Assembly: GCA_020854775.1 (NCBI GenBank)
Contig: JAHKLZ010000008.1
Coordinates: 8,221-72,220, forward strand
From: Candidatus Woesearchaeota archaeon
GTDB taxonomy: Archaea; Nanobdellota; Nanobdellia; Woesearchaeales; 21-14-0-10-32-9
Length of the DNA: 64,000 nt
Direction of reading: 5' to 3'
The notes beneath the pieces were generated by a model that ran no database searches, was not told the origin of the DNA, and saw nothing but the letters and a program-made list of their open reading frames with translations. A program made the position numbers and the translations under genes. Shown piece after piece: positions 973 through 11,192 of the stretch (position 1 is the stretch's first letter; each line of letters opens with the position of its first letter).

Positions 973-1617
973 TCAAGTCTTTTCTTTTAATTTAGCAATT
1001 AAACAATAATGGTTGTGTTTATCGGTGTAAATTTCGAATATTTTAAAGTTCTTGAAATATTTTTTTAATAGTGCTTTTGTATAGATGTAATGAGGAACTC
1101 CTTTTTCAGGTCCGTCAAGCATAATATATGTTCTTGGTTCTATAAGTTTTACTTTAGATGCTCTTCCTTTCATTTTGTTTTTCGTGACTGTAATAAAAAC
1201 TAATCCGTTTGGTTTGAGCACTCTTTCAATTTCTGAAATGCAAAAATTGATTTCTTTTAATTTTGCATGATGTATTACTTGAGTAGAAATTATTGCATCA
1301 AAAGTATTATCTTTGTAAGGGAAAGGTTTGTAGCAAGAGGAATTTTTTAGTTTTGCTTTTAATTTTAATTCATTAAGCCACGACCTTGTATGTTTTAAAC
1401 CAGATTCAGAATTATCCATACCATAAACATCAAAACCTTCTTTTGAAAGTAAAACGATGTGCCTACCTGAACCGCATCCAAGATCAAGAACTTTTTTTAC
1501 TTTATTTTTTTTAAAAAGATTTATGACTTTATTCATATCTTCGTGTGGCTTATGAAAAACTTTTCCGCTTTTTTTAAATATTGCATCCCAACCCATAAAC
1601 ATCTTATATACAGACAT
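973..1617 (-). CDS. Class I SAM-dependent methyltransferase
   Basis: 214 aa. VLDLGCGSGRHIVLLSKEGFDVYGMD glycine-rich SAM loop. VLKPNGLVFI post-II motif. Confidence 0.7.
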   Translation of the reverse strand: MSVYKMFMGWDAIFKKSGKVFHKPHEDMNKVINLFKKNKVKKVLDLGCGSGRHIVLLSKEGFDVYGMDNSESGLKHTRSWLNELKLKAKLKNSSCYKPFPYKDNTFDAIISTQVIHHAKLKEINFCISEIERVLKPNGLVFITVTKNKMKGRASKVKLIEPRTYIMLDGPEKGVPHYIYTKALLKKYFKNFKIFEIYTDKHNHYCLIAKLKEKT

Positions 1618-1718
1618 TTATATATAAATTTTTGGAAAGAACTGGCTAATAGGAACTTCTTTGTTTTCTGAAAAAAATTCACAATATTGCTTTTTCATAC
1701 AAATTAATAATTGAAAAA

Positions 1719-1840
1719 GAAACATTTATAAGAATCAAGCACTCAATACGTTTTGTAAGTAATTCTTTTAATCAAAACCGAACAAAGACACGTGTTCGCA
1801 CATCGCTGTGTGGGAATCATCTCAGTATCTGCAGTTATTA
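1719..1840 (+). repeat. Direct repeat copy A (~122 bp, ~93% identical to 5531..5652). Core is locally GC-rich and contains the hairpin cgaaca-aagacacg-tgttcg
   Basis: Near-exact match to 5531..5652. Core tgttttgtaagtaattcttttaatcaaaaccgaacaaagacacgtgttcgcacatcgctgtgt[ggg/aaa]aatcatctcagtatctgcagttatta. Lies ~70 nt upstream of a plus-strand ORF. Confidence 0.85.
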
Positions 1841-1912
1841 TTTATTAGTGATTAATTTATTCTTTTTTAGAAATTTTTTGAAAAAAACTAAGAAATATTT
1901 ATAAAATGAAAC

Positions 1913-2152
1913 TTGTTTATTGTTATTATGAACTACGGCGCACAATCTTTAATTCACGAAAAAACATATTTGAAAAAGTTTAATTTGATATATGGTAAAT
2001 TAAATAGCAAGCCTGATAAAGTTTTAAAAAGATATAAATCTTTTTTAAATTATAAAACTAAATCTTTTTGTTTGTTATCTTTATTTGATTCCGATACTCA
2101 AATTAAATTAAATTCTATAGATGACATATTGACAATAAGAAATATTAAGTAA
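1913..2152 (+). CDS. Small hypothetical protein (79 aa), lysine-rich
   Basis: Only an ORF, with no recognisable motif. Sits directly downstream of repeat copy A. May be spurious. Confidence 0.25.
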   Translation: MFIVIMNYGAQSLIHEKTYLKKFNLIYGKLNSKPDKVLKRYKSFLNYKTKSFCLLSLFDSDTQIKLNSIDDILTIRNIK

Positions 2153-2153
2153 C

Positions 2154-2924
2154 TTATTTTAATGCTTTAATTAAACTAGTTTTTATTTTTTTACAAGAAA
2201 AAATTATTTCTTTCTCATGGAATTTAGGAACCCAATTAAAATTTTTGTCTACAAAATCACTCAGTATAAAAATAGAAGAAACTTGTACATCTCTATATTT
2301 AGCTATCGTAAAAAGTGCCGCAGACTCCATATCTATACAAACCGTACCTTCTTTTCTATATTTTTCCGCTTTCTTCTTAGATTCTTTATATCCTGCATCA
2401 GTAGTCCAAGAAATGCCTTCCTTAAAAAATATATTATCAGACTTAAAAAAATCTTTTATTTTATTATTTAAAGAGCCACTAGGATATGCATATTTTGATG
2501 CTTTTTCATAATGATAAGAAACACCTTCATCCCTAATAGATTTATCACATAAATAAATATCTCCTGCATTACCCTCAGAAATACTCCCACTTATACCAAC
2601 AGTTATGAATCTTTTTACACCTCTGACAATTAATCTTTCAAATAATAAAGAAGATAAAGGCGCACCTATTCCAAATACAATCACACCACATTTATGTTTA
2701 TTAAATATCAGTTCATAAAATTCATATTGACCTAATAAAGTCTCAACTAAAATTAATTTCTCACCATCTACAAATGAATTGAATAATTCTTTTTGAAAGA
2801 ATATAAAACAAGCATCAGGATATTGTTTTTTATGAGAAAATTTCAATTCATACATATATTCATCTTCAGGAGTAATTATGTCCTCATCATAAGGATTATT
2901 ATCTAATATTGGAATTTCATTCAT
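2154..2924 (-). CDS. Nucleoside phosphorylase family protein (PNP/UDP-1 fold; MTA/purine nucleoside phosphorylase-like)
   Basis: TVCIDMESAALFTIAKYRDV resembles the (M)ESAA motif of the PNP/MTAN family. A glycine-rich FGIGAPLSS and GISGSISEG are present. The track ORF starts at 2975 but overlaps GT2. The ATG at 2922-2924 (MNEIPILD) lies 2 nt after the GT2 stop, so I chose it as the start. Confidence 0.55.
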   Translation of the reverse strand: MNEIPILDNNPYDEDIITPEDEYMYELKFSHKKQYPDACFIFFQKELFNSFVDGEKLILVETLLGQYEFYELIFNKHKCGVIVFGIGAPLSSLLFERLIVRGVKRFITVGISGSISEGNAGDIYLCDKSIRDEGVSYHYEKASKYAYPSGSLNNKIKDFFKSDNIFFKEGISWTTDAGYKESKKKAEKYRKEGTVCIDMESAALFTIAKYRDVQVSSIFILSDFVDKNFNWVPKFHEKEIIFSCKKIKTSLIKALK

Positions 2925-3768
2925 TTTTATATAACTCAGTAGGAAATTTGTTCCCATCAAACAATACAGATACAAGGAAGCTTTTTTTATTTATATTATT
3001 TATGTTTCTTCTAGTAGTAGAATCATATTTCTTTATTTCATTGAGTAACTTGATACTTGGTTCTTGAGCTATTTCTTCTAAAGACTTGAAATTTGTTCCT
3101 AAATGATAGCCTGTACAATCATCAACTAAAGATACACAATAATTTTGTCTTAACAACCTTAACCCAAAATCTTCATCAAACCCACCCCACGAAACAAAAT
3201 CTTCATCTATCCCATTTAAATCGTAAAAAATGCTTTTTTTTATTCCTAAATTGCCACCCCACACCTTAGAATGAAAATCTATGTCTTTGAGTACTCCTTT
3301 CCTAGGATCAATATCAGATATCAAACCCTTTTGAAGTTTGTTAAATCTTTTATTTTTAATATCTTCAAAAGAAATTTGAGACAAAAAGTCTGTTGTTACA
3401 TAAAGAAGTCTGCCTAAAACTACTTTTTGAGAATTTTGTTCAAAATGATTTTCATAATCTTGAATCCATTGAGGAACAGTTATTATATCATCATCTAAAA
3501 AGATTAAATATTTCCCTTCAGCGAACTTAGCCCCTATATTTCTCATTTGTGGAACATTATAACCTTCTTTATCCAATCTTATGTATCTGCAAGGAATTTT
3601 TGAAGAATATAAATAATCCTTACAAAAATCTTTTGTGCCATCCTCAGATCCATCATCAACAATATTAATTTCAAAATTTTTATTTGATTGATTCTCTAAA
3701 CTAACTAATGTTTTTTTAAGAGTTTCTTGTCTGTTGAATGTTGTTAAAATTACAGTGTATTTCGCCAT
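2917..3768 (-). CDS. Glycosyltransferase family 2
   Basis: N-terminal TVILTTFNRQETLKKTLVSLENQ...NIVDDGSEDGT (GT-A fold). DDD at the IFLDDD motif. C-terminal GGN...DEDFG...RL acceptor motifs. Confidence 0.8.
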   Translation of the reverse strand: MAKYTVILTTFNRQETLKKTLVSLENQSNKNFEINIVDDGSEDGTKDFCKDYLYSSKIPCRYIRLDKEGYNVPQMRNIGAKFAEGKYLIFLDDDIITVPQWIQDYENHFEQNSQKVVLGRLLYVTTDFLSQISFEDIKNKRFNKLQKGLISDIDPRKGVLKDIDFHSKVWGGNLGIKKSIFYDLNGIDEDFVSWGGFDEDFGLRLLRQNYCVSLVDDCTGYHLGTNFKSLEEIAQEPSIKLLNEIKKYDSTTRRNINNINKKSFLVSVLFDGNKFPTELYKNE

Positions 3769-3770
3769 TT

Positions 3771-4496
3771 TTATTTATCCAACCTCCTAATTTCAATGTC
3801 ATTTTTGTTTAAAAAATGAAAAATATCCTCTAGATTTTTTGAATAATCACCCAACATATAATTGTGATGTAACAATATTCCTAAAAAACCATCTCTCTTT
3901 AGTTTCTTTTCAATATGAGGTATTAATGTTGCAGAATCATAAATTTTTTTTGTTGTATAATTTTCAATAATATCAATATTAACCGGAATAGACATAATTT
4001 TTTCCGATATCAACTCTATTTCAGAACCATATCCTGATATTAAATCATAATTTTGTTCAATCAACAATTCAATTTGAGGAAATTCATGTCGGGGAGGCAC
4101 AAATGACAAGACATTATTGTCAAAAAAATTTGAGAACAATAATTTGCCTTTTTGTAATCTTTTTGTATTATCTGCAATAGAAATGCTTGAATGAAACTCA
4201 CTATAATCTCCATTATGAGCAACATAATTTGTTCCATGATTAAACCCATGTTGCATAGTAAAAATATTGTCATCATATAACAATTTTGCCGAATCAAAAT
4301 CCATAAACCGGATTTCTGATGGTATAACTGCCACATTTAAAGGAATATTTCTATCAATAAAGAGCTTTGCTAAAACTTTAAATTTATCATTATCATAACC
4401 GACATCGTCATCTCTAAAAAATGCAAAAGGTTTAACACTAATTTTTCTTGAGATTTTTTTCATTCTCCAATCCGGTACATAATCAATATTATTCAT
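3771..4496 (-). CDS. Polysaccharide deacetylase-like / DUF2334-like carbohydrate esterase (tentative)
   Basis: 241 aa. FFRDDDV and HGFNHGTNYVAH resemble the Asp and His metal motifs of NodB-type deacetylases. The match is weak. Confidence 0.35.
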   Translation of the reverse strand: MNNIDYVPDWRMKKISRKISVKPFAFFRDDDVGYDNDKFKVLAKLFIDRNIPLNVAVIPSEIRFMDFDSAKLLYDDNIFTMQHGFNHGTNYVAHNGDYSEFHSSISIADNTKRLQKGKLLFSNFFDNNVLSFVPPRHEFPQIELLIEQNYDLISGYGSEIELISEKIMSIPVNIDIIENYTTKKIYDSATLIPHIEKKLKRDGFLGILLHHNYMLGDYSKNLEDIFHFLNKNDIEIRRLDK

Positions 4497-4908
4497 TTTC
4501 TGGAACTATTATATCGTTATTTATTAAATCGTCAAAATCAAATAACACATCTTTTTTTTCAAAACTTTTTTTAGAATTTAATAATTTTAAAGTATTATCA
4601 TCAAATCTTATAAAATCCCCAATATAATCATTATAAACTCCTTTATGAGATACATAACACCAAGGAGCCAAGACAAAATAATCAGAAGACTTTTTTGTTT
4701 TTAAAATTAATTTTTTATTTTTGACCACATTTTCAAAAACTCGTAAATATTTTTCTAACATACTTTGATAATTAAAATTTGTTTTAATATAATTATGAAC
4801 AATAGTAAAATCTTTTTTTGGAGAATCAAATATTTTAATAATTTGTTTATTTAATAAAAGTTCATCTTTATAATCTATTAAATTTACACAATCCATGTTT
4901 TCAGGCAA
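4489..4908 (-). CDS. Hypothetical protein (139 aa)
   Basis: ORF only. Overlaps the deacetylase-like gene by 8 nt, which suggests co-transcription. No recognisable motif. Confidence 0.35.
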   Translation of the reverse strand: MPENMDCVNLIDYKDELLLNKQIIKIFDSPKKDFTIVHNYIKTNFNYQSMLEKYLRVFENVVKNKKLILKTKKSSDYFVLAPWCYVSHKGVYNDYIGDFIRFDDNTLKLLNSKKSFEKKDVLFDFDDLINNDIIVPENE

Positions 4909-5389
4909 GTTATATCTTAAAGCACATAATGAACAACACGGTTTAGAATCAGTATCATTACGCTTTTTTAATATTTATGGACCTAAACAAGATTCAAGAA
5001 TGGTAATTCCTAGATTTTTTGAACAAGCAATTTCAAATAAACCCATCCCGATTTATGGTTCCGGACAACAAACAAGAGATTTTACATACATTGATGATGC
5101 AATTAAAGCAACAATACTTTTAAGTGAAAAAAGTAAAGGTTGCGAAATAGTCAACATAGCTAATGAGAAAGAATTAAATATTAAAGATTTAGCAGAAAAA
5201 ATACTCACAATCACAAATTCTTCTTCCAAAATAGAATTTATTAATACCATAAATAAAAGATATGATTATGAAGTTGAAAGAAGATTTGGTTGCGCTGAAA
5301 AATTATTTTCAATTACTAAATATAAACCTAAAACAAATATAGATGAAGGATTAAGAAAAATTTTTGAACACTACAATAAAAATAATTAG
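4895..5389 (+). pseudogene. C-terminal fragment of an NAD-dependent sugar epimerase/dehydratase (extended SDR). The N-terminal Rossmann half is missing
   Basis: VSLRFFNIYGPKQDSRMVIPRFFEQAISNKPIPIYGSGQQTRDFTYIDDAI matches the C-terminal half of GalE/RmlB-type enzymes. There is no GxxGxxG or YxxxK region upstream in any plus-strand frame. A minus-strand gene abuts immediately upstream. Confidence 0.6.
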
Positions 5390-5530
5390 GATAGATATTA
5401 AATTAGTAATTATTTATCAAACAACTATTCATTAAAATATTAGCGCTTATTCACAATAGAGAACAAATTCTTCTTAAAAGAACAAAAATTAACAAGTGTT
5501 AATTAAATTTAACAAAAAGTAGTAAAAAAA

Positions 5531-5652
5531 GAAACATTCATAAGATTCAATCACTCATTATGTTTTGTAAGTAATTCTTTTAATCAAAACCGAACAAAGA
5601 CACGTGTTCGCACATCGCTGTGTAAAAATCATCTCAGTATCTGCAGTTATTA
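5531..5652 (+). repeat. Direct repeat copy B (partner of 1719..1840)
   Basis: See copy A. Lies ~100 nt upstream of the MNT/HEPN pair on the plus strand. Confidence 0.85.
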
Positions 5653-5753
5653 CCATTTAGTATCAAATACTCTGTGTTTCTTTTGAAAATCATTTCATCA
5701 AAACACATTTTTAGAAAACTTTATATACTAAATGTGGTTAATATTAACCAAAT

Positions 5754-6329
5754 ATGGATAATAAGTATAAAGTTGTGCTTTTTCTTGCAAAGAAAAATGA
5801 ATCATACACTTTGCTAGAATTAAGTAAACAAGTAAAAATTCCTTATACAACGCTTCTCAGAGTAGTTAATAAACTAAACGATGTAACTACGACGATTACA
5901 AAAGGCAAGTCTAAATTAATACAAATAAAATGGAACGACATAACGACTTCTATGCTCGTTGTTGCATCTTTTGAAGAAAAAAAAGAATTCTTAAAAAAAC
6001 ATCCATTAATCAAGAAAATATCTGAGCAAGTTCAAGATATTGCTTTAGTTTTTGGAAGTTATGCTAAAGGCACACAAAAAAAAAACAGCGACATAGATTT
6101 AATCATAATAAATACTAAAGGTGAGAAGAGTGTTAGTTTTTCTAATTTAGAGATTTTGTACGACATAAAAATAAACCCTATGTTTTTTACAAAAAAAGAA
6201 TTTAAACTAATGCTTCGAGACAAAGAAGAAAACGTAGCAAAACAAGCACTAAAAAATCACGTATTACTTACTGGATTTAAAGAATTCTGGGAGGAAGTAA
6301 AAAATGCAATTTCAAAAAGAAATATATAA
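5754..6329 (+). CDS. Minimal nucleotidyltransferase (MNT) antitoxin with N-terminal winged-helix domain
   Basis: ALVFGSYAKGTQKKNSDIDLIII is the GSx9-13 Dx(D/E) Pol-beta NTase motif. The N-terminal ~70 aa have an HTH-like TLLELSKQVKIPYTTLLRVVNKL. Overlaps the downstream HEPN gene by 26 nt. Confidence 0.7.
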   Translation: MDNKYKVVLFLAKKNESYTLLELSKQVKIPYTTLLRVVNKLNDVTTTITKGKSKLIQIKWNDITTSMLVVASFEEKKEFLKKHPLIKKISEQVQDIALVFGSYAKGTQKKNSDIDLIIINTKGEKSVSFSNLEILYDIKINPMFFTKKEFKLMLRDKEENVAKQALKNHVLLTGFKEFWEEVKNAISKRNI

Positions 6330-6816
6330 TGAAAAGTTCAAAAAACTCTTAAAAGAAGATTTAATAGTGAACTCGAATGCTCAATTCAAGATCAAATTAT
6401 TTTTGAAAAAAGCCGAAAACAGTTATTTAATTGCGAATCATCATAAAACTCAAAAAGAAAATCCTGAACAAATATATTGGTGGCAATGGGCAATCACAAT
6501 AAGTTATTACTCAATGCTTTATGCAGCTAAAGCAGCAATTCTTCAAAAAGGATACGAAGTAAAAACACACGAAGCAGCAGAAGTTGCTCTTGGACATTTA
6601 CTCGTACCAAATAAATTAGAACTCGAAGACTTAGAATTATTAAATCAAACACATAAAGCATTCGAAGAAGAATACATAACATATTTTCAAGACGCAAGAA
6701 TAGAAAGTAGCACCTCAAGATATCAAGCAAGACCATCATACACCGAAAAAAGAGTAACTGAGATATTAAAAAACGCGAAGAAATTCATAAACAAAATAGA
6801 TAAAATACTTGAGTAA
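6304..6816 (+). CDS. HEPN domain protein (toxin partner of MNT)
   Basis: 170 aa, all-helical, with an Rx4-6H-like C-terminal region (SRYQARPSYTEKRV and KTHEAAEVALGH). Classical overlapping arrangement with the preceding MNT. Confidence 0.55.
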   Translation: MQFQKEIYNEKFKKLLKEDLIVNSNAQFKIKLFLKKAENSYLIANHHKTQKENPEQIYWWQWAITISYYSMLYAAKAAILQKGYEVKTHEAAEVALGHLLVPNKLELEDLELLNQTHKAFEEEYITYFQDARIESSTSRYQARPSYTEKRVTEILKNAKKFINKIDKILE

Positions 6817-6821
6817 TCCAT

Positions 6822-7661
6822 ATGATAAATAAAAAACTTTCATGCGGATTTGAAATGCCTGCTTTAGGTATTGGCACTTATTCTTTTGGTGGTGAATATG
6901 AACGTGATGAATCTAGAAAAGATGAATGGATTCAAGCAATCAAGGACGCGATAGAGTTAGGTTATACTCATATTGATACCGCAGAAATTTATGGTGCGGT
7001 TTTTACTGAGGAATTGGTTGCTGAGGCAATACGAGGCGTTGATAGGTCTAAGCTATTCTTAACTTCTAAGGTTTGGCCCACTAATTTTTCGTACGACTCT
7101 GTTTTAGAATCTGCTAAAGCTTCACTTAAAAGGCTTAATACAACTTATTTAGATTTGTATTTGCTTCATTCATTCAACCCAAATATTCCATTAAGTGAAA
7201 CTATGCGTGCTATGAATGAATTAGTTGATAAAGGCTTAGTTAAGCATGTTGGTGTTTGTAATTTTACTGCTAAGCAATTATTAGATGCTCAGAAAGTTTC
7301 TAAAGCTAAAATCGTTGTGAATCAAATGAAGCACAGTTTATGGGTTAAAAACAAGCCTGATATTGAAACCTTTAAGTTTTGTCAAGAAAATGATATCTTG
7401 ATTACTGCGTACAAGATTTTTGGCAGAAACAAAATAAATAACGATAAAATTGATTTGCTTGAAGAAATGAGTAAAAAATACGAGTTAAGTGTACATCAAT
7501 TAATGATTGCCTGGGTTTTATCAAAGAAAAACTTCACAACAATCTTTACATCAATGCATAAAGATCATTTAAAATCTAACTTGGATGCTCTAAATGTAAG
7601 AATAACTTCTGATGATGTAGCCTTATTAGATGAAGAATTGTTAATAAATAGATTTAACTAA
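6822..7661 (+). CDS. Aldo/keto reductase family oxidoreductase
   Basis: MPALGIGTY, GYTHIDTAEIYG (the catalytic Asp/Tyr region), KHVGVCNF and ITAYKIFG are all AKR signatures. Confidence 0.8.
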   Translation: MINKKLSCGFEMPALGIGTYSFGGEYERDESRKDEWIQAIKDAIELGYTHIDTAEIYGAVFTEELVAEAIRGVDRSKLFLTSKVWPTNFSYDSVLESAKASLKRLNTTYLDLYLLHSFNPNIPLSETMRAMNELVDKGLVKHVGVCNFTAKQLLDAQKVSKAKIVVNQMKHSLWVKNKPDIETFKFCQENDILITAYKIFGRNKINNDKIDLLEEMSKKYELSVHQLMIAWVLSKKNFTTIFTSMHKDHLKSNLDALNVRITSDDVALLDEELLINRFN

Positions 7662-7669
7662 AATTTTAA

Positions 7670-8323
7670 TCATTTTATTCTTTTTGCATAAATTACTCTA
7701 ATCATCAGATTTGAGTTTCTGCTTTTTACTTGATAGTGTTTTTCAATCTTAAAGTTGGTACTCAATAATTTAGTAAAGTCTTCGTATGAAATAAATGTTG
7801 TGTAGTGGCCTTTTTTGTTAATTATCCAATTTCTTTTATTTGGATGTTTAGGAAGCTTCTTATTTTCTTCACAATTACTTATGCTATGAACATAAAAATA
7901 TCCTCCTATGTTTAAATTTTCTAAAAGTGCTTCTTTATAAGTTTTCCAATAATATCTCCTAATATGATGTAAACATCCACAATCAATAACTACGTCGAAC
8001 TTATTTTTTGATTCATACTTTAGTATGCTGGAAACTTGAAAGCTAGGATTTACTTTTTGTTTAATAGAATTAATCTTAGCAATTTTTATTGCTGTTTTTG
8101 AAAAATCTACCCCTGTTGATTTAAATCCTTTTTTTTGAAAGAATATTGTGTTTTTACCGTTACCACAACCTATATCTAATAAACATCCTCTTATTTTTTT
8201 TAATTTCAAAAAATCATTGAATTTTTTAACAGATTCATCTATTTCTTCTGTTTTATATGCTTGATGTGATTCTTTGCTCCAACTATGTTCCATGTATTTT
8301 TTTTCAAGTATATCTTTTATCAT
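7670..8323 (-). CDS. Class I SAM-dependent methyltransferase (TehB-like). Paralogue of 89..910
   Basis: LLDIGCGNGKNTIFFQKKGFKSTGVDFSKTAIKIAK parallels VLDLGCGEGGNSLHLAEKGFDVTCVDISKTAIKELSK. The KFDVVIDCGCLHH motif is also present. Confidence 0.7.
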   Translation of the reverse strand: MIKDILEKKYMEHSWSKESHQAYKTEEIDESVKKFNDFLKLKKIRGCLLDIGCGNGKNTIFFQKKGFKSTGVDFSKTAIKIAKINSIKQKVNPSFQVSSILKYESKNKFDVVIDCGCLHHIRRYYWKTYKEALLENLNIGGYFYVHSISNCEENKKLPKHPNKRNWIINKKGHYTTFISYEDFTKLLSTNFKIEKHYQVKSRNSNLMIRVIYAKRIK

Positions 8324-10805: not shown

Positions 10806-11192
10806 ATGTTAAATAACGTAAAAAAAACAATAAAAGTAATGCTAAACACAGAATCCGTGCAAAGATTAAACAGAATAAGAGACAATTCAATAGAACAAAT
10901 GTACGGAAACTTTAGAAACGGACATAATCCAGAAGACATAGTAGAAAAAATAAAATCATACCAAAGATTCGAAAAAGGAATAACACCATCAGAAATAATA
11001 ACTTATCTAGCTCTAAGAAAAGCAGTGAGTTTCGGAGAAAAACTAGAAACAGCAGATCCTAAATTCATATACAATGCAGGAATGGAAAGAATAAAACTAT
11101 ACACAGACAACATAGTAGAACCACTAGGAATAACTCAAAGAGACATAACAGACACATTCAAAAAACAATACAATAAGTTCCTGAAAAACTAA
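10806..11192 (+). CDS. Hypothetical protein (128 aa)
   Basis: The ORF is preceded by a GAGGT Shine-Dalgarno 7 nt upstream of the ATG. No recognisable domain. Confidence 0.45.
   Translation: MLNNVKKTIKVMLNTESVQRLNRIRDNSIEQMYGNFRNGHNPEDIVEKIKSYQRFEKGITPSEIITYLALRKAVSFGEKLETADPKFIYNAGMERIKLYTDNIVEPLGITQRDITDTFKKQYNKFLKN

Follow-up and report, generated by a model that had tools for sequence, protein, structure and literature searches.

In a 64,000-nucleotide stretch of DNA from a Candidatus Woesearchaeota archaeon (positions 8,221 to 72,220 of contig JAHKLZ010000008.1, assembly GCA_020854775.1), here called the window, two long direct repeats are located downstream of a tRNA-Met gene. Our analysis indicates that the two repeats probably are attachment (att)-type recombination junctions, which arose by site-specific recombination at the 3'-end of this gene and were stacked in tandem. 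The repeats contain a short core identical in large part to the tRNA 3'-end, the cores are arranged in tandem beside the tRNA gene, and homology between several genomes breaks at the core. Site-specific recombination at the tRNA 3'-end is favoured because these breaks fall exactly at the core and the flanking arms are swapped there. A preliminary description of this DNA had offered att-like boundaries of an integrated or recombined island as one possible explanation of the repeats. This explanation gained support from the 15-nt copy of the tRNA-Met 3'-end inside the repeat and from the exchange of arms at this position in relatives.

Copy 1 (W1, 1714-1849) and copy 2 (W2, 5526-5661) are both intergenic and lie in direct orientation on the plus strand. 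Positions 1714-1840 and 5526-5652 form an ungapped match of 127 bp with 119 of 127 positions identical (8 mismatches, 93.7%), which bears out the earlier claim of two near-identical direct repeats of about 122 bp. The match widens to 136 nt at 91%, and gapped similarity extends over about 250 nt at 77% (approximately 1673-1925 against 5484-5746), up to the downstream start codons. Five of the 8 mismatches fall within the first 36 nt and the other 3 constitute a GGG/AAA block, while a stretch of 62 nt (1750-1811 and 5562-5623) is free of any difference. Also present in both copies, as previously noticed, is the hairpin CGAACA-AAGACACG-TGTTCG (1779-1798 and 5591-5610). The central part of the repeat is GC-rich within a local region of about 26% GC. 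A 37-nt core segment of the repeat matched twice in the window and not once in 100 shuffles, and no third copy was found in the 64 kb by a 3-mismatch search, repeat finding, or an nhmmer profile.

Exact protein look-ups assign the window to a metagenome-assembled genome of Candidatus Woesearchaeota with KO361_ locus tags. The locus was assembled identically in several independent metagenomes, and all contigs of this population are identical there. A longer contig of the same organism, L001, covers the tRNA gene and both copies (L001 position 4248 corresponds to window position 1). Searches of genome, metagenome, and viral collections with exact 23- to 24-mers of the repeat gave no match, the repeat-bearing JGI contigs evidently lying outside the scanned metagenome collection. 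Four viral scans, one of them with the tRNA 3'-end itself, were negative. A search with a degenerate pattern returned one true match (L013) and three chance matches in GC-rich bacteria (L014-L016).

The link to the tRNA gene is based on its last 15 nucleotides. ARAGORN reported an intact tRNA-Met(CAT) gene at L001:4094-4168 on the plus strand, 79-153 nt before window position 1. The gene thus lies just outside the window, on the strand of the repeats, and copy 1 follows about 1.9 kb downstream of it. Its terminal 15 nt, ATCTCGGTATCCGCA, return as ATCTCAGTATCTGCA on the plus strand at 1819-1833 in copy 1 and, with the same 15 nt, at 5631-5645 in copy 2, 13 of 15 positions matching. This core spans the end of the T-loop, the 3'-strands of T-stem and acceptor stem, and the discriminator, and it ends exactly at the discriminator base. 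The order of elements in the locus is a LysM gene (minus strand), tRNA-Met, a trailer X, two methyltransferase genes (minus strand), copy 1, an open reading frame (ORF) of 74 codons (ORF74), a glycan-operon fragment, an epimerase remnant, copy 2, and the toxin-antitoxin genes MNT and HEPN. Three cores in a single orientation are therefore found within 5.8 kb.

In related Woesearchaeota, the exact 15-mer of the tRNA occurs at L009:6797-6811 and L013:4010-4024, and with one G-to-A change at L017:4845-4859. In L027 and L028, MNT-HEPN is located directly downstream of an intact tRNA-Met(CAT), and the conserved 3'-end of the repeat, AATCATCTCAGTATCTGCA, is homologous to the 3'-end of the tRNA-Met in these two loci (…TTCAAATCTCGGTATCCGCA). 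A global alignment of the repeat body with the tRNA body scored worse than shuffles. Since the two bodies are unrelated, the core alone is tRNA-derived, as expected of an attP-type arm. We also considered the repeat as a tRNA, a pseudo-tRNA, or one half of a split tRNA. This was rejected, as ARAGORN called no tRNA gene across the whole 64-kb window, the two bodies aligned worse than shuffles, and a complementary partner was missing from the window.

At all loci compared, the junctions consist of a left arm, the core, and a right arm, and both copies in the window have the architecture b-core-Y. In these terms the locus reads tRNA-Met-core-X, two methyltransferases, b-core-Y, glycan fragment, b-core-Y, and MNT-HEPN. 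Arm b of copy 1 covers 1714-1818 on the plus strand. Its full form of about 105 nt, which includes a TATA-like motif, was found in W1, W2, L009:6692, and L017:4739. Only these full copies carry the 5'-extension (1714-1770 and 5526-5582, plus strand) with the archaeal motif AAACATTTATAAG at 1720-1732, which resembles a transcription factor B recognition element (BRE) followed by a TATA box and may serve as a promoter. Found within the short form (AAAACCGAACA...GGGAATC; 1771-1818 and 5583-5630, plus strand) are the inverted repeat CGAACA-N8-TGTTCG (1779-1798) and, as invariant blocks, CGAACAAA and TTCGCAC. A second inverted repeat, the 29-nt segment GTTTTG...CAAAAC at 1750-1778, lies mostly in the 5'-extension, with its last 8 nt in the short-form arm. 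Judged by their sequence, the two inverted repeats and the invariant blocks suggest that arm b is bound by protein.

In other genomes this short form, about 50 nt long and beginning with AAAACCGAACA, comes immediately 3' of a stop codon, which belongs to HEPN at L009:8105 and L027:11069 and to a peptidase S51 gene at L013:3965. Altogether three kinds of left arm occur: the tRNA body, the repeat body b, and an unrelated or decayed tRNA-like sequence c (L011, L012, L013, L028). On the right side, two arms alternate immediately after ...GCA. Arm X (TAACCAGTACCCTCGTTAACGTGCTAAGGG...GCCTTYGGCTCAAGCCCTTT followed by a T-run) is the native tRNA trailer in L001, L011, and L027. Arm Y is T-rich and starts with GTTATTATTTATTAGTGATTAA... 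(1834-1870 in copy 1 and 5646-5690 in copy 2, plus strand). Right arms of this GTTATTATTTATTAGTRATTAA-like kind were also found 3' of the core at L012:538, L009:8166, L013:3254, and L027:11134. Several of the possible combinations of left and right arms are represented across the loci.

Further observations concern individual arms. At L012:470-537, upstream of MNT, the left arm of the core resembles a decayed 3'-half of tRNA-Met, with 23 of 31 T-arm and acceptor positions retained; a small hairpin lies 5' of this arm, and ARAGORN did not call it. Trailer X, 75-125 nt long, follows tRNA-Met and some b-core junctions in several Woesearchaeota genomes. Its occurrences are L001:4169-4245, just upstream of window position 1, L011:128-200 and 2482-2560, L009:16-144 and 6812-6935, L017:4860-4935, L027:9831-9925, and L013:4025-4125. 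GC-rich blocks (GCCTTYGGCTCAAGCCCTTT) are typical of it, as are hairpins inserted in a lineage-specific manner, and it ends in a T-run; Rfam gave no match to it, and its consensus fold is weak. From its sequence and position, X could be a tRNA trailer and terminator or a co-transcribed small RNA. We attribute to chance an apparent similarity (AAGTAATT) of the 5'-part of arm b to the 3'-coding end of the peptidase S51 gene. The 29-nt inverted-repeat segment was evaluated as an orphan CRISPR repeat or CRISPR mini-array. It occurs once per copy and nowhere else, and scans for tandem and direct repeats revealed no array, so this candidate was dismissed.

The promoter-like motif raises the question of transcription. 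The repeat might represent two copies of a small RNA gene, or give rise to a chimeric transcript with a tRNA-like 3'-end, with the TATA box at 1725-1732, a start near G1750, and the end in Y. In line with this, the BRE/TATA-like motif is found at a constant distance in all four full-length copies, the two window copies do not differ at all over 62 nt but have 5 mismatches in the promoter-like part, the GC-rich core stands out in its 26% GC surroundings, and the GGG/AAA block falls into a predicted hairpin loop. But Rfam models matched the repeat neither at the gathering threshold in the whole window nor at E<=10 in the region 1600-5800 and four related loci; at the gathering threshold the 64-kb window contains no Rfam family at all. 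Single-sequence folds of both strands had z-scores of -0.8 to +0.6 against shuffles. The RNAalifold consensus of 7 variants reached -4.8 kcal/mol, which is no better than shuffled controls, and two-sided changes were seen in 0 of 23 tested pairs. Moreover, three copies are devoid of the promoter and the 5'-third and begin right after a stop codon, and the right flank is interchangeable. The earlier suggestion of a small structured RNA was consequently abandoned, and we consider a small RNA gene quite improbable.

Comparison with related loci places the breakpoints of homology at the core. Related Woesearchaeota contigs carry two to three cores downstream of tRNA-Met. These are located at 3239-53 and 4010-24 in L013 (tRNA at 2334-48), at 113-127 and 2467-81 in L011, and at 9816-30 and about 11120-33 in L027, while in L028 the tRNA 3'-end is followed by its repeat after HEPN. 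L009:8150-8735 and L013:3239-3820 are 93% identical from the core through the peptidase gene, with unrelated sequences on the left side (HEPN-b against other sequence). The match of window positions 5632-5800 to L012:524-690 (87%) begins inside the core, and the similarity between the tRNA-X region of L001 and b-core-X of L009 likewise sets in at the core. On a larger scale, the region between the LysM protein as left anchor (41% identity) and a GTPase as right anchor (75%) spans about 10 kb in our genome and 4.8 kb in L013, and its gene content differs between the two.

All copies of the repeat found elsewhere are tied to the tRNA-Met core context. This, together with only two copies in 64 kb and their direct orientation, led us to discard a miniature inverted-repeat transposable element or another repeat derived from an insertion sequence. 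A template and variable repeat pair of a diversity-generating retroelement was likewise rejected: annotations of the locus include no reverse transcriptase, the copies are intergenic, and the mismatches, apart from the GGG/AAA block, are not adenine-specific.

A simpler origin would be a plain segmental duplication of about 250 bp comprising b-core-Y and the MNT promoter region, followed by ordinary unequal crossing-over that involved no site-specific enzyme. The gapped 77% similarity, which reaches the promoters of ORF74 and MNT, and the failure to find a recombinase are compatible with such a scenario. It leaves unexplained, however, why the core equals the 3'-end of the adjacent tRNA. In addition, identity falls sharply at the right edge of the core, from 94% in b-core to roughly 60-65% beyond (the latter estimated by eye), and breakpoints across genomes coincide with the 15-nt core instead of being spread over the shared sequence. 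We therefore regard plain duplication as very improbable; both it and the small RNA gene are the less likely explanations.

Recombination at the tRNA-Met 3'-end could have proceeded as follows. A tyrosine-type integrase, encoded elsewhere or lost, would cross over within the 15-nt core, which is how elements targeting the T-loop and 3'-end of tRNA genes integrate. Repeated insertion, excision, and re-insertion at any of the cores would then leave small blocks in tandem with left and right arms swapped. Arm b would represent the arm of the element side, perhaps with binding sites for the recombinase or accessory proteins such as the two inverted repeats, and arm Y would be the source of the T-rich terminator-like tail. 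The genes inside the bracketed block may have been truncated by later deletions. In this scheme the recombinase, the sequence of events, and the role of arm b are inferred. W1 and W2, both b-core-Y, are the attP-type junction that is expected between tandem units or after arm swapping.

Several findings weigh against this interpretation. Genes for an integrase or other recombinase were recognised neither in the Pfam results for the loci that were retrieved, nor at less than 10 kb from the repeats, nor in 10 ORFs of integrase size elsewhere in the window, and the bracketed block contains truncated genes and no mobility genes. The core differs from the resident tRNA-Met at 2 of 15 positions. The tRNA is followed by X and thus resembles an undisturbed attB-type site, while the repeats are b-core-Y; since simple integration would have left attL...attR, one has to postulate several events or a swapping of arms. 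Among the related contigs compared, none showed a precise empty site or this 3.7-kb block at another location. Finally, arm b is 84-87.5% identical between genomes against 89% for neighbouring coding DNA, i.e. about equally conserved. Because of this conservation and of the retained TATA-like motif, arm b could have a function of its own, e.g. as a transcript or as an outward promoter.

The size of the units between cores bears on another possibility. They range from about 0.8 to 6.8 kb and include single-gene units of 0.77 and 0.9 kb in L013, MNT-HEPN units of 1.2-1.4 kb in L009, L027, and L028, a unit of 2.4 kb in L011 that holds a methyltransferase as well, and 3.8 kb here. The locus might hence be an integrase-less cassette array anchored at tRNA-Met, comparable to integrons or pdif modules, in which a XerA-type host recombinase or an unrecognised one shuffles units of one to few genes. 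The site of about 60 nt, i.e. arm b plus the 15-nt core, would directly follow the stop codon of each cassette, and exchange would take place within and between genomes. The segments between cores are indeed very short and free of mobility genes, and in two unrelated genes the stop codon is directly followed by short-form arm b. The peptidase S51 unit was seen in two different surroundings at 93% identity, with homology breaking at the core, and toxin-antitoxin cargo is generally reminiscent of chromosomal integron cassettes and pdif modules. Nevertheless, this reading is unlikely. Neither IntI nor another recombinase was found, the site exhibits neither the R''/R' consensus of attC nor a long imperfect palindrome, and the genes point in both directions and have promoters of their own. 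Furthermore, only a handful of loci form its basis, and decay of ordinary integrated elements would give the same picture.

A genuine integron attC site was rejected. Such sites are defined by IntI, by R'' RYYYAAC ... R' GTTRRRY, by a single-strand hairpin, and by promoterless co-oriented cassettes. At the present locus IntI is missing, the site starts with ACCGAAC and ends in ...GCA followed by variable sequence, the fold amounts to -4.8 kcal/mol, and genes with their own TATA boxes occur on both strands.

The DNA bracketed by the repeats is a fragment of an operon, since relatives hold the full operon and genes are truncated here. The complete operon in relatives consists of rSAM, GT1, DUF2334, GT2, and PNP. 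In the window, the fragment covers 2154-4908 on the minus strand and comprises PNP_UDP_1 (2154-2975), GT2 (2917-3768), the deacetylase-like DUF2334 gene (3771-4496), and the remnant of a GT1/GT4 gene (4489-4908). The latter, initially listed as hypothetical, turned out to be the C-terminal part of a GT1/GT4 glycosyltransferase; it is 37% identical to a relative of 461 residues over that protein's positions 325-461. On the plus strand, 4895-5389 encode the C-terminal remnant of a NAD-dependent sugar epimerase/dehydratase, which matches no more than positions 149-240 of the 240 in the Pfam profile. The truncated 5'-ends of these two remnants abut head to head with an overlap of 14 nt, and the breakpoint of a deletion or rearrangement is located at about 4895-4908, inside the block and away from the repeats. 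The 3.7 kb are thus a broken piece of a larger conserved glycan operon with two 5'-truncated genes. The picture of a glycan-modification cassette therefore held only in part: Pfam confirmed PNP, GT2, the deacetylase-like gene, and the truncated epimerase, but the block is an operon fragment with truncated genes rather than a tidy cassette. Next to copy 1, ORF74 (1928-2152, plus strand) encodes a hypothetical protein of 74 amino acids without family assignment and has its own TATA-like box at approximately 1893-1902.

Immediately outside the repeats, as initially reported, Pfam confirmed the toxin-antitoxin pair on the plus strand (5754-6816), with MNT at 5754-6329 (NTP_transf_2/Polbeta) and HEPN at 6304-6816. 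Other Woesearchaeota contigs have this module among different genes, with 87-89% nucleotide identity, and there it is usually bounded by core-containing sites. The more distant MNT-HEPN relatives in L029, L031, L039, and L040 (57-64% amino-acid identity) are accompanied neither by tRNA-Met nor by the repeat, and the association of repeat and tRNA-Met with MNT-HEPN is for this reason confined to a sub-lineage.

A different repeat family (GACCTGT...CATCGCAGAGTCCATC) flanks the MNT-HEPN pairs (62-64% identity) at L029:9840-9900 and 11100-11150 and at L039:7740-7800, in L039 followed by X-like sequence. It has the short motif CATCGC in common with arm b and may be related to the present junctions as an older form.

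The MNT gene has a TATA box at 5720-5727, 34 nt before its ATG (5754), and the layout at ORF74 is alike; both boxes lie outside the well-conserved part of the repeat. This speaks against the proposal of a duplicated promoter or 5'-leader with an operator hairpin. The repeat as promoter and operator of MNT was also rejected because the TATA box and a conserved palindrome are situated nearer to the ATG and both are kept in relatives without the repeat, in which other sequences or nothing take its place. The palindrome, a perfect one of 14 bp (GGTTAATATTAACC, 5736-5749), lies between the TATA box and the ATG, and all MNT-HEPN loci examined retain it exactly or with one to two changes, even where protein identity is as low as 57%. 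The N-terminal domain of MNT is, judging by its sequence, a predicted winged helix-turn-helix, and GGTTAATATTAACC is a putative operator through which MNT likely regulates its own expression by means of this predicted domain. In the L017 population (L017:5551-5670 and the relatives L018-L024), HEPN beside MNT is cut to a stub of 39 codons, after which come a second nucleotidyltransferase gene, in inverted orientation, and a gene for a 130-amino-acid protein. Since HEPN is reduced to this stub, the toxin partner has been lost or replaced there.

Three paralogous methyltransferases dependent on S-adenosylmethionine are encoded near the repeats on the minus strand, two of them between tRNA-Met/X and W1 in the segment 89-1617 (89-910 and 973-1617) and the third at 7670-8323. 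They share 30-38% mutual identity over about 80-95 aligned residues, and the 273-amino-acid protein encoded at 89-910 has a membrane-like C-terminal extension. Its residues 1-43 have a counterpart with 67% identity in a minus-strand ORF of 55 codons adjoining MNT at L011:1031-1198, a further truncated gene remnant in the same variable region of a related genome. The cumulative GC skew drops steadily across the 64-kb window, which fits the mostly minus-strand genes.

These findings describe a recombination hot spot beside tRNA-Met in a DPANN archaeon, a group in which mobile elements and gene flux are poorly charted; a full-text literature search for Woesearchaeota, integrase, and tRNA together returned nothing on this system. 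Such a hot spot accounts for the truncated and reshuffled accessory blocks, which include methyltransferases, glycan-modifying enzymes, a peptidase, and the HEPN-MNT pair. Active exchange of the small recombinase-less units, if it occurs, would amount to a new cassette-type way for archaea with tiny genomes to trade genes, and if the units behaved as cassettes, the locus would be an archaeal analogue of integron and pdif systems built on a tRNA-derived crossover site. Otherwise it would be an ordinary decayed tRNA-linked island, of use for annotation because it flags partial tRNA copies and pseudogenes.

Several known systems share features with the locus. Archaeal integrons have been described (PMC9668308). 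As in integron arrays and pdif modules, small units including a toxin-antitoxin pair are present, a site recurs at the 3'-end of units, and homology breaks there. Unlike integrons, the locus has no IntI, no R''/R' consensus, no extended single-strand hairpin, and genes in mixed orientation with their own promoters; unlike the site of Xer-dependent pdif modules, the core is tRNA-derived and not dif-like. The toxin-antitoxin genes conform to known HEPN-MNT modules in having NTP_transf_2/Polbeta and HEPN domains in an overlapping gene pair. The pair is only a cargo or neighbour of the repeats, and the repeat does not belong to the promoter of the module. Cis-mobilizable elements (CIMEs), att-flanked remnants without recombinase, are known from Firmicutes and linked to conjugative elements. 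Tandem accretion and recombinase-less att-flanked remnants have been described for bacterial integrative elements (PMC5704250). The locus resembles these in its row of att-type sites, its internal attP-type junctions (b-core-Y), and its modules without recombination genes of their own, but it has no known helper element, and its host belongs to the DPANN archaea.

The closest parallels are islands at tRNA 3'-ends. Partial tRNA gene copies beside inserted DNA are a documented and common outcome of integration in archaea, and in Pyrococcus yayanosii the island PYG1 is located between a complete and a partial tRNA-Gln (PMC9897764). Like such islands, our locus shows an intact tRNA at one end, direct partial copies of its 3'-end downstream, and apparently variable accessory DNA in between. 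The identity block begins at the T-loop and ends with the gene, which fits a 'T-loop' class of tRNA integration sites reportedly defined by Williams in 2002. The locus differs in having a core of 15 nt, compared to the 44-bp repeat of PYG1, and blocks of 0.8-6.8 kb that carry neither an integrase nor other mobility genes. Its repeats include a long conserved arm unrelated to tRNA, and the tRNA site itself looks undisturbed (tRNA-X). The locus, with no integrase nearby, is a familiar kind of genomic-island scar in an unusually compact form.

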